DNA of 15,690 nucleotides from Nitrospinota bacterium (lineage in GTDB: Bacteria; UBA8248). Below are positions 1 through 6,925 of the stretch, piece by piece. The notes under the pieces were generated by a model that worked only from the letters and a program-made list of their open reading frames with translations, was not told the DNA's origin and ran no database searches. Every line of letters begins with the position of its first letter. Within the stretch, counting starts at the first letter, position 1. Made by a program: the position numbers and the translations under genes. Location of the stretch: assembly GCA_046581755.1 (NCBI GenBank), contig JAYGFR010000293.1, positions 1 to 15,690 of the forward strand. Direction: 5' to 3'.

Positions 1-1409
<1,409 letters not shown>

Positions 1410-1833: not shown

Positions 1834-3576
1834 TCATTCCACGGGCATGGCCGCCGTTAAGGGGACCCCGGGGGGCGGATCCCCCACCCCCTCACCCGGA
1901 ATCTCCTCCCGGCGGGCCGATATTTCCCCGTTATGAGCCCGCAAAACAATATTGCATCTCCAATTCTCATCGTCCAGGTCAGGAAAATCGAAGCGAAAAT
2001 GCCCGCCGCGGCTCTCCTCGCGCATGAGGCCCGCCGTCGTGAGCATCCTGGCCACCTGAATGAGGTTTCCCGTCTCCAGAATCCGGCGCATGCACTCCCA
2101 GCGCTTTTTCGGGGAATCTCCGGAGACGGACACCTCATCGTTATCCCGCTCGAGCGCATCCAGCTCAGTCAGGGCTTTCTTCAAACGATCGCCGTCCCGG
2201 ATTTGCCCGATGGTGACGGTGCCAACCTGCTGAACCTCTCTTCTGATTTCATCCACCCCCCCGCCGCCGGAGCGGTTTGCGCGCTCCTCGAGCCAGGCGA
2301 TCCCCTCGCGCCATCCGCCGCCCTCCGGGTCGGGCCGCTCCCGATCTCCGGCCTCGCAGGCGGCGCCGATTTCGGCCCGAAGTCCGAATACATAACTGTC
2401 CGCGAGCGCCGCGCCGCCCGTTCTGTTGGCTCCGTGGATTCCGCCAGCGGCCTCGCCGCCGGCGTAGAATCCCTCGATCGTGGTGCGGCCCCACTCGTCG
2501 ATGCGGATTCCGCCCAGGTAGATGTGCGGGCCGCTGGCCACCTCGATGGGCGACTCGGCCATGTCCACGCCGCAGTTTCTAAAAACCCGCACAATGTCCG
2601 CCGTGGCCCCGTTGTTGACCACATCGAACACATGGCGCGCGTCGAGCAAAATTTCGTGGCTTTCGGTTCCACGTCCCTGGTAGATTTCCGTTCCCACGGC
2701 GCGGTTCACGATGGCCCGGGTGGCGCCATCGCCGCGCTCCGGGTCGTAGCGCCACATGAACCGCTCTCCATCCTTGTTGCAGAGGTAGGCGCCCGCGTTG
2801 ATGAACCCGCTCGTGTGTGGCGGATATCCCCTTATCCGCTCGGGCGCGGCGGCCAGGAGCTGGTAGTCGATGAATTCCATGTCGATCAGATCCGCGCCCG
2901 CCCGCAGCGCCATGGCATAGCCGTCGCCCGATATGTAGGGGGGCGAATCGTTGAGCTCGTGAAGCTGGGGAGCGCCTCCCGTGGCCATGACGGTCGAGCG
3001 CGCGTGGACGGCGACGGGCGTTCCATCCCGGTAGAAAAACCCTCACGCCCCCACGACGCGGCCGCCCTCTTTCATCAGATCAACGAACATCACATGGGCG
3101 GTGGTCTCGAAATCCCACTCCTTCATCTTTTTAAAGAGCGAGTTCATCAGGGGCTTGCCCATCAGCTTTCCGCAATGGAGAAGGCGGTCGTAGCGGTGCG
3201 ATGCGCTGGGCTTTTGGTGATACCGGCCGTCCTTGAGCCAGACGAGCCCCAGACCCCAGGCGTCGAGCTCGATCGTCCGGTCGATGGCCTCGTGGCTCAT
3301 GACGCGCATGAGGCGCAGGTTGCACAGATCGTAGGCCGCCTGCACCGAGTCCTCGTAAAGAAACTCCGGTTTGTCGTCGGGATGGGAATGACCGAAGGCG
3401 GCGGTGTGGCCGCCGCGCGCCATGGAGGAGCTTCCCGAGGGGTAGGTGGCCTTTGTCATGAGAACCGGCCGGACGCCCGAACGCCGGCATCCGACGGCGG
3501 CCATCATCCCGGCGACGCCCCCGCCGATGATGAGGACATCGGTTTCGATATGCCGCACATTTTCGGATAAACCCAT
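1834..3576 (-). pseudogene. SdhA/FrdA/NadB-superfamily FAD-dependent oxidoreductase (~580 aa) interrupted by an in-frame TGA at codon 178
   Basis: ORFs 3043..3576 and 1834..2988 are in the same frame, joined by ...RVVGA-TGA-GFFYRDGTPVAVHARSTVMATGG. Motifs: DVLIIGGGVAG (FAD binding), GDGYAMALRAGA, GERFM, PHIYLGG, HGANRTGG, REESRGGHFRFDFP. RBS AAGGAG upstream of ATG 3576. Confidence 0.8.
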
Positions 3577-5625: not shown

Positions 5626-6234
5626 TTATTTTTTCCGCCCGCCCACGCTCGAACCGTAGATTTTTTCGGACTCTTCCTGGCTGATCGGGTTCCCCTCCGG
5701 ATCGTGCATGGGAAACGCCCGGAGCGTGCGCATGAAGACCTGCATGCCGTAGTGGATGGCGATGAAACCGCCGAGCTCCATGATCTGGGCCTCGGAGAAA
5801 TGCTTTTTGCCCTCGCCGTAGAACTCCGCGTTCAGCTTCTTCGGCTCGCGGTACATCAGCCAGGCATAGCGAAGCGCCCACTTTTCGGCGTCGGTGAATC
5901 CCGGGTCGTTTTCAAAATCCCCGCACCCCGCCTCGATGCGCTCCTCGGTCAGGCCCTCTTTCTTGGCTTTCTCCGAGCGGAGGTTGGTGAAATAGGTGTC
6001 CTCCGCATTCCGGGAGAGCTGGACCCGGATGATCTCCTTGAGCTTGTGGTCCACGTTTCCTTCGGCGTGGGCCATGTGCATGGCACCGTGCAGCACCTTG
6101 GCGTAGCCGGGCGCATGGGCCAGGATCCGGACAAATAGCTCGTCCGGCGCCTGGATATCCCGGGAACGCTTGAGCAGCTTCCCGAAGCCGGCCTGGTCGA
6201 TCCGATCCTCCGGGAGAGGTTCGATAAATGGCAC
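5626..6234 (-). CDS. AhpD/carboxymuconolactone decarboxylase-like protein lacking the CxxC/CxxU motif (202 aa)
   Basis: GTG start with AGGAGG RBS. Contains LAHAP, VDHKLKEIIRVQLSR, FTDAEKWALRYA and HFSEAQIMELG, typical of the CMD/AhpD fold. The redox motif position reads EDTYF. Confidence 0.85.
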   Translation of the reverse strand: MPFIEPLPEDRIDQAGFGKLLKRSRDIQAPDELFVRILAHAPGYAKVLHGAMHMAHAEGNVDHKLKEIIRVQLSRNAEDTYFTNLRSEKAKKEGLTEERIEAGCGDFENDPGFTDAEKWALRYAWLMYREPKKLNAEFYGEGKKHFSEAQIMELGGFIAIHYGMQVFMRTLRAFPMHDPEGNPISQEESEKIYGSSVGGRKK

Positions 6235-6259
6235 CGCGGATTCCTCCTGAATAGACGGT

Positions 6260-6925
6260 TTATTCGCTTCCTGATTCGATTTCGGATTCGCCCTCGCCGG
6301 TGGCGCGCGCCATCGCGCCCCGCAGGTGAGAGGTCGGGCGGTCGCCGTAGATGCGGCGCGATTCCTCCTGGCTCACCAGGTGGCCGTCGGGCGAGAACAT
6401 CGGATAGAAATCCAGCGTCCGGAAAAACGTGTGGTAGCCCACGTTAAAGCCGATGAAGGCTCCGAGCTCGACGATCTCCTCGTCTGAATAAAGCTCCTGA
6501 AGCCTCGCGTAGAAAGCGCCGTCGATCTTCTCGGGCTCGAACTGCATCAGCTCGCTGTACTCCAGGGCAATCTTTTCGCTTTCGGTGAACTTGTCGCTCT
6601 CTCTGAAGTTCTCGATGCCCTCGTCGATCATCTCCTCGGTGAGACCGTCCCGCTTCGCCGAAGCGGATCGCACGTTGCCTCAGTAGTTGCAGTCGGCCGC
6701 TCGGGAGAGCTGGACCCGGATAATCTCCTTGAGCTTGTGGTCCACGGCCCCGGTGCTGAAAACCGTTCCCCAGGCGATGTACATCGCCTTCGAGAGATCC
6801 TCGTTGTGGCCCTGTATGGCGTGAAACGCCGGGTCCGGGGCCCGGTGCTTGAGGCACTTTTTGACGAACGGGCCGAGCTTGGTCTTCGCCAGATAATCCA
6901 GATCCAGCATCGTGATGTTGGACAT
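6260..6925 (-). CDS. AhpD/CMD-like selenoprotein (221 aa; C79-N-Y-U82)
   Basis: ORFs 6680..6991 and 6260..6673 are in frame across one TGA (6680-6682): SRAADCNY-TGA-GNVRSASAK. The joined protein aligns end to end with the downstream paralog. The TGA falls at the second Cys of the AhpD CxxC. A SECIS-like hairpin follows. ATG 6925 has a GGAG RBS. Confidence 0.88.
6646..6670 (-). promoter_or_regulatory. putative bacterial SECIS element of the AhpD-like gene
   Basis: The mRNA after UGA reads GGCAACGUG-CG A UCCGCUUC [GGC] GAAGCGGG A CG. This gives a 7-bp perfect upper stem with an apical loop beginning with G, 20 nt after the UGA. Confidence 0.7.

Follow-up and report, generated by a model that had tools for sequence, protein, structure and literature searches.

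The window, the whole stretch of 15,690 nucleotides that was analysed, is contig JAYGFR010000293.1 of a Nitrospinota bacterium (assembly GCA_046581755.1; source genome G000). On its minus strand lie two adjacent paralogous genes, A and B, the first of which is split by an apparent stop codon:

6260..6925, minus strand: gene A, a predicted selenoprotein of 221 amino acids with an AhpD/CMD fold (readthrough translation, PF02627 match, homologues, structure model)
6680..6682, minus strand: in-frame TGA at codon 82, presumed to encode selenocysteine (TGA in 186 of 186 loci)
6689..6691, minus strand: codon of Cys79, the first position of CxxU (Cys in 163 of 163 distinct segments)
6668..6670, minus strand: codon of Arg86, corresponding in position to the AhpD relay His, His55 of PA0269 (Arg in 163 of 163; spacing compared with PMC3141380)
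6649..6667, minus strand: putative bacterial SECIS hairpin of 7-8 pairs with a GGC loop (6659-6657), 20 nt after the TGA (conservation, fold, model in PMC13188914)
6929..6934, minus strand: Shine-Dalgarno-like GGAGAG before the gene A ATG (read from the sequence)
5626..6234, minus strand: gene B, a 202-aa paralogue with D-T-Y-F for C-N-Y-U and no Cys in the motif, a likely partner subunit (ORF, alignment, synteny, tree)
6243..6248, minus strand: Shine-Dalgarno-like AGGAGG between A and B, which are 25 nt apart (read from the sequence)

Read from 6925 to 6260, gene A encodes 221 residues with a single in-frame TGA in the context RAADCNY-U-GNVRS. The motif is C79-N-Y-U82, with E67, Y81 and R86 as further residues. 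Under translation table 11 the gene falls into two parts, of 81 aa and of 137 aa, the latter an ORF at 6673-6260. An earlier note on this DNA had joined the two ORFs across the TGA at 6680-6682 into one protein of 221 aa, and readthrough bears this out; the note left the strand unstated, and it is the minus strand, the plus-strand translation of 6260-6925 being meaningless. The joined protein was also said to be colinear with the neighbouring paralogue. It aligns to gene B without a gap, straight across the TGA, at 43% identity over 191 aa. PF02627 (CMD) is its sole Pfam match, at 34.6 bits against a cut-off of 23. No NCBIfam model reaches its curated cut-off for this subfamily: the best, NF053654 (YciW-related (seleno)protein; E 1.7e-18), scores 67 of 310 bits, TIGR01926 33 of 81.8, TIGR00778 19 of 27.8 and NF041047 20.2 of 110.

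The TGA is not an assembly error, since it is covered by contigs from two DNA runs, each of a different study and one run possibly being the source of this DNA, and by one contig from an RNA library, with no differing letter listed. TGC or TGT in the raw reads had been named in advance as a result that would speak against selenocysteine; the contigs from other runs show TGA. RNA-library contigs touch both A and B, which is no measure of expression or co-transcription.

Homologous loci were gathered with search patterns that left codon 82 out. The set comprises matches in related genomes (26 of 41, G000 included) and the best 80 each from 132 genome loci and from 254 metagenome loci; some genomes occur twice, kin are not independent, and weaker Cys forms may be missed among the best 80 of each. 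By record title the carriers belong to Nitrospinota, Acidimicrobiia, Rhodospirillales, Betaproteobacteria, SAR324, Chloroflexota and Verrucomicrobiales. TGA stands at codon 82 in all 186 loci, which comprise 163 distinct segments around the codon, and Cys or Trp in none; Cys79 is kept in all 163. In the 160 collection loci both halves of the protein around the TGA are conserved at 63-89%. Cys appears at the Sec column in distant relatives, in 71 aligned rows among the best 150 representatives (CxxC, about 22-43% identity; the query, written with C, is one of the 71), mostly with Arg at +4. The comparison proposed in the earlier note, a search of homologues for Cys or TGA at this position, thus yielded TGA in the close loci and Cys in the distant ones, and the opposing result it had named, a non-Cys residue, is absent in that no close homologue has another codon.

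A stem-loop 20 nt downstream, with an apical loop starting in G, had likewise been noticed earlier, and is found at 6667-6649 with the loop GGC, its first G 20 nt after the TGA. The part of PMC13188914 that was available gives the bacterial SECIS consensus as a loop of 3-9 nt with G first, a stem of 4-16 bp, a distance of 16-37 nt from the UGA and an energy of -7.5 kcal/mol or lower; checked by hand, the gene A hairpin agrees with it (GGC loop, 7-8 pairs, 20 nt, -20.4 kcal/mol for a 60-nt stretch). The support comes from conservation rather than from energy, which does not exceed chance (z -0.67; 40 of 200 shuffles fold equally well). Codons +6 to +9 are each represented by a single codon in 161/162, 162/162, 162/163 and 162/162 cases, whilst the top-codon share of the remaining non-Met codons from -20 to +40 is 0.30-0.89. 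Across the seven core pairs, pairing is kept in 98% of cells, as against 27-65% when the structure is slid along the alignment, a comparison favoured by the structure having been taken from this sequence. Pair +17:+31 is formed in 163 of 163 segments (C-G 78, U-A 73, U-G 12); here a silent change accompanies an Arg/Gln one, and on a FastTree protein tree, with 147 of 159 rows counted, the pair has changed at least 9 times. Rfam returned no SECIS model for the window, its sole match being a 16S rRNA gene at 1-1408.

These data bear on whether the TGA is a true stop, with gene A a split gene, a pseudogene or the result of misassembly. A separate 137-aa protein could begin at the GTG at 6673, and another TGA in the same window, at 3043-3045, behaves like a nonsense change. 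However, the same TGA recurs in 186 loci over several phyla with both halves conserved, frozen silent sites occur only in the hairpin, and the other runs agree, so that a true stop is very improbable.

The machinery for decoding UGA as selenocysteine is complete in G000 (96.5% complete), where selA, selB, selC and selD were to be sought according to the earlier note. selA and selB lie on contig C136 and selD, which carries an in-frame TGA of its own, on C268, all over cut-off; the tRNA-Sec on C264 scores 73.8 bits, also over cut-off. Among 50 other carrier genomes, taken from the 80 best genome loci for spread and largely without close kin, selA was matched in 45, and in 44 of them over cut-off, compared with 1 of 14 control genomes. 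The 5 carriers with no selA match are MAGs for which completeness is not given.

The reading of the UGA as Trp, in gene A or through use of code 4 by the organism, has a negligible chance of being right. Its support is a group of 7 database proteins that read Y-W-G-N-V-R-S, with W at the place of codon 82. Three of these could be matched to loci (two at 97.5% identity), the other 4 being untraced, and all three loci carry TGA, so the W is a gene-caller reading; TGG occurs in none of the 186 loci. Furthermore, TGA ends 484 of 1124 long ORFs in G000, some spurious frames included, and in the first 500 ORFs no Trp is aligned to a stop, whereas 955 Trp-Trp pairs occur. The reading was rejected on these two grounds, TGA in the matched loci and TGA as an ordinary stop in G000. 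With TGA in 186 of 186 loci, a conserved hairpin and the complete Sec machinery, the apparent stop that splits gene A is very likely read as selenocysteine, as the earlier note proposed.

That AhpD-like CxxU selenoproteins are a known class, also stated earlier, is confirmed by published sets that contain near relatives. 'CMD domain-containing protein' selenoproteins were predicted from ocean (Sargasso Sea) metagenome reads (AACY01688758, AACY01716242; Zhang, Fomenko and Gladyshev 2005, PMC1088965, available part of supplement S1), and an 'AhpD-like 1' block from the GOS set (JCVI_READ_1558542, JCVI_READ_1510389; Zhang and Gladyshev 2008, PMC2398784, available part of supplement 3). Near the start of the latter block the gene A motif is found 3 times, one GOS read being near full length. 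Gene A and AACY01688758 share 60 of 76 residues (79%, counted by eye), and the match to the 2005 and 2008 reads extends to 31 identical residues around CNYU and the same hairpin letters after the TGA. In the portions seen, these entries are read fragments and selenoproteins by prediction, and neither PMC1088965 nor PMC2398784 mentions there a partner gene or a His-to-Arg change. Gene A has the traits of these sets, namely an in-frame UGA in CxxU, PF02627, close likeness and Cys homologues at the Sec column. By sequence it is a member of a subfamily already predicted as selenoprotein in 2005, and the subfamily is not new. A 2026 review lists AhpD-like and CMD-like CxxU families and, in the part available, describes AhpD-like selenoproteins as catalogued since 2005 and largely uncharacterised (PMC13188914). 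BSepDB, as far as its description was accessible, includes three genomes of UBA8248, under the titles Nitrospinota or Nitrospinaceae, for which 48-54 selenoprotein genes are listed (PMC13326102), and may contain gene A already. The present reading corrects the annotation of the family, which databases represent by fragments that begin downstream of the UGA or by sequences with an erroneous Trp.

The structure model of gene A (pLDDT 75.7) has helices at 63-77 and 80-84, and its fold and profile matches are all AhpD-like: Bmp8, 2prr and PA0269. With the AhpD-like peroxidases (P. aeruginosa PA0269, 2o4d, and M. tuberculosis AhpD; PMC3141380, in part) it has in common the fold, the two-helix hairpin and the Glu-12 / Cys / Tyr / Cys(Sec) spacing, and four of the five PA0269 relay residues have counterparts in its E67, C79, Y81 and U82. 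It differs from them in having Sec for the second Cys and a dedicated redox-dead paralogue. A further difference is at the relay His four residues after the second Cys, called invariant in these peroxidases in the available text of PMC3141380: in the gene A family this position is Arg86 in 163 of 163 segments. Arg86 appears to predate Sec, since Arg is common to most Cys relatives, and to mark a wider subfamily. Gene A is predicted to work like an AhpD redox enzyme, and is not filed here as a classical AhpD peroxidase. Of the Sec-dependent peroxidase or oxidoreductase that the earlier note had proposed, the AhpD-type CxxU enzyme stands, whilst 'peroxidase' is weakened, A having Arg86 in the position of the relay His of AhpD-like peroxidases.

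That substitution goes beyond the earlier note, as does the place of gene B, used there only as an alignment guide and here seen as a probable part of the system. Of the 186 loci, 170 have gene B downstream of A, and in 2 (L078, SAR324; L094, Betaproteobacteria) the two genes are fused in frame. Of the 14 loci that lack B, 12 have 330 nt or less of contig left, and the other 2 (L033, L034) are solo Sec forms of 41-48% identity with no B within about 1.5 kb; a B profile search within these loci found no divergent copy. Among the 120 database matches listed of 298, the 16 long ones (at least 276 aa) all consist of the post-UGA half of A joined to B. Gene B is itself conserved, with D in 165, Y in 169, F in 163 and R in 169 of 169 loci, so that the equivalents of Y81 and R86 are kept throughout, and its 13-residue motif is free of Cys in 169 of 169. 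In a quick tree of 49 rows (no bootstrap), B is the sister group of A plus the two solo forms (SH-aLRT 97), and both stand among CxxC homologues. Gene B appears to be a duplicate that lost its redox residues and was kept. Its position downstream of A in 170 loci and the two fusions suggest a heterodimer of one active and one redox-dead half, whilst L033 and L034 indicate that the wider clade as a whole does not depend on the partner. The open-access literature on AhpD-like selenoproteins that was seen, which is not a full survey, makes no mention of a partner gene or of Arg for His.

A similar architecture is seen in human Sestrin2, which according to the accessible part of PMC4674687 has two pseudo-symmetric AhpD-like domains, one with and one without the redox residue. 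The resemblance to the natural A-B fusions is an analogy only, as Sestrin2 is eukaryotic and has a single Cys with a His relay. It is best regarded as convergence and not membership, since no sestrin was found among the Pfam or structure matches to A.

Taken as a whole, the reading in which UGA encodes Sec82 by way of the hairpin, in a predicted Sec/Cys redox enzyme of AhpD/CMD fold that likely forms a heterodimer with B, is favoured with some reserve. SelB-Sec-tRNA would almost certainly bind the hairpin and insert Sec82. From what is known of the family, there is a strong case that the Sec82 selenolate would attack an oxidised substrate, Cys79 would resolve it to give a selenenyl-sulfide, and a cellular thiol system would re-reduce the enzyme; no conserved gene for a reductant lies near A. 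Selenocysteine is ionised at neutral pH. A His relay would be dispensable given an ionised Sec, and Arg86 would serve to stabilise either the selenolate or an anionic substrate. Organic hydroperoxides would be the single most likely substrate, although as a tentative choice. Gene B, arisen by duplication and bereft of both redox residues, would probably occupy the other position of a pseudo-symmetric dimer, with a role in structure or in substrate binding.

Alternatively, Sec may be inserted and A be a stand-alone AhpD-type peroxidase or AhpC reductase, with B an independent gene of the same operon. The four relay residues shared with PA0269 and the existence of the solo forms L033 and L034 are consistent with this, and Clarke et al. 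describe, in the available part of PMC3141380, an AhpD-like active site that is structurally independent of the oligomer. The exchange of His for Arg in 163 of 163 segments argues against it, as do the presence of B after or fused to A in 172 of 186 loci, with 12 of the 14 misses near contig ends, and the conservation of the B motif in its own way. The stand-alone enzyme is on balance unlikely.

A different chemistry has also to be considered. The tetrabromopyrrole debrominase Bmp8 (6ohi) is the best match to A among solved structures by profile (E 4e-14) and by fold, and has a C-x-Y-C motif. Its mechanism is reportedly reductive debromination. An A-B pair acting as a Sec-dependent reductase of a non-peroxide substrate, for example a Bmp8-like reductive dehalogenase of halogenated aromatics, would agree with the altered chemistry that the His-to-Arg change suggests and with the catabolic neighbours of the locus (aminotransferase, FAA hydrolase, CoA-transferase, hydrolase). 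However, Bmp8 is a Cys enzyme of only 21% identity to A, 2prr and PA0269 score almost equally, and Bmp8 has a His after its CxxC where A has none. No bromopyrrole pathway genes were seen near A, and none of the neighbours is conserved across phyla. Such a reductase is decidedly unlikely. Equally speculative is a broader proposal: an obligate A-B heterodimer of Sec enzyme and pseudo-enzyme, in which Sec82 and Arg86 would carry out non-peroxide chemistry (Bmp8- or deiodinase-like reductive dehalogenation) in marine, freshwater and soil lineages, as a bacterial parallel to the two-domain sestrins. The presence of Sec in every close member examined, the changed catalytic residue and the conserved dead twin offer a direct route to what AhpD-like selenoproteins reduce.

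The surroundings leave the substrate unconstrained, since no neighbour besides B is conserved across phyla; the top neighbour clusters apart from B occur in at most 21 of 160 loci, mostly close kin. A promoter scan gave 0 sites, and terminator-like sites number 6 against 3.4 expected, an uninformative difference. An ORF with two His motifs at 5608-5042 (minus strand), 17 nt after gene B, has no Pfam or NCBIfam match; this protein, which we take to be cupin-like, adjoins the A-B pair in only 4 of 186 loci. The gene at 3576-1834 (minus strand) encodes an SdhA/NadB-like flavoprotein with an in-frame TGA at 3045-3043, where relatives, including all four same-genus genomes, have TGG (Trp). As three other runs show no difference, this TGA looks like a real nonsense allele of the species and not Sec, the gene being split or a pseudogene. 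A second selenoprotein, of the known UGSC family (G-D-U-G-S-C), lies at 13047-12478 (minus strand) with its TGA at 12723-12721; its readthrough passes NF041046 (149.9 against a cut-off of 125), which the halves alone do not. Directly before it is a 371-aa ORF at 14228-13113 (minus strand) with no Pfam or NCBIfam match, both being found in the same 10 loci. The 16S rRNA gene at 1-1408 (minus strand) is cut by the contig end.

Elsewhere in G000 five more AhpD-like genes (contigs C66, C231, C213, C247 and C42) have TGA in CxxU with His at +3 or +4, and one, on C118, has CxxC. By sequence G000 is predicted to have an expanded set of AhpD-like selenoproteins. Another AhpD-like gene (G000:C246:5829, L222) has TGA at the first Cys position (N-U-G-Y-C), whereas in 40 relatives the two nearest homologues (44-46%) have CxxU; it may be a rare form with UxxC or else a nonsense change. 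Finally, a 376-aa two-domain relative (P0143) has C-x-x-W in both domains, and would be a candidate double selenoprotein should W represent TGA.
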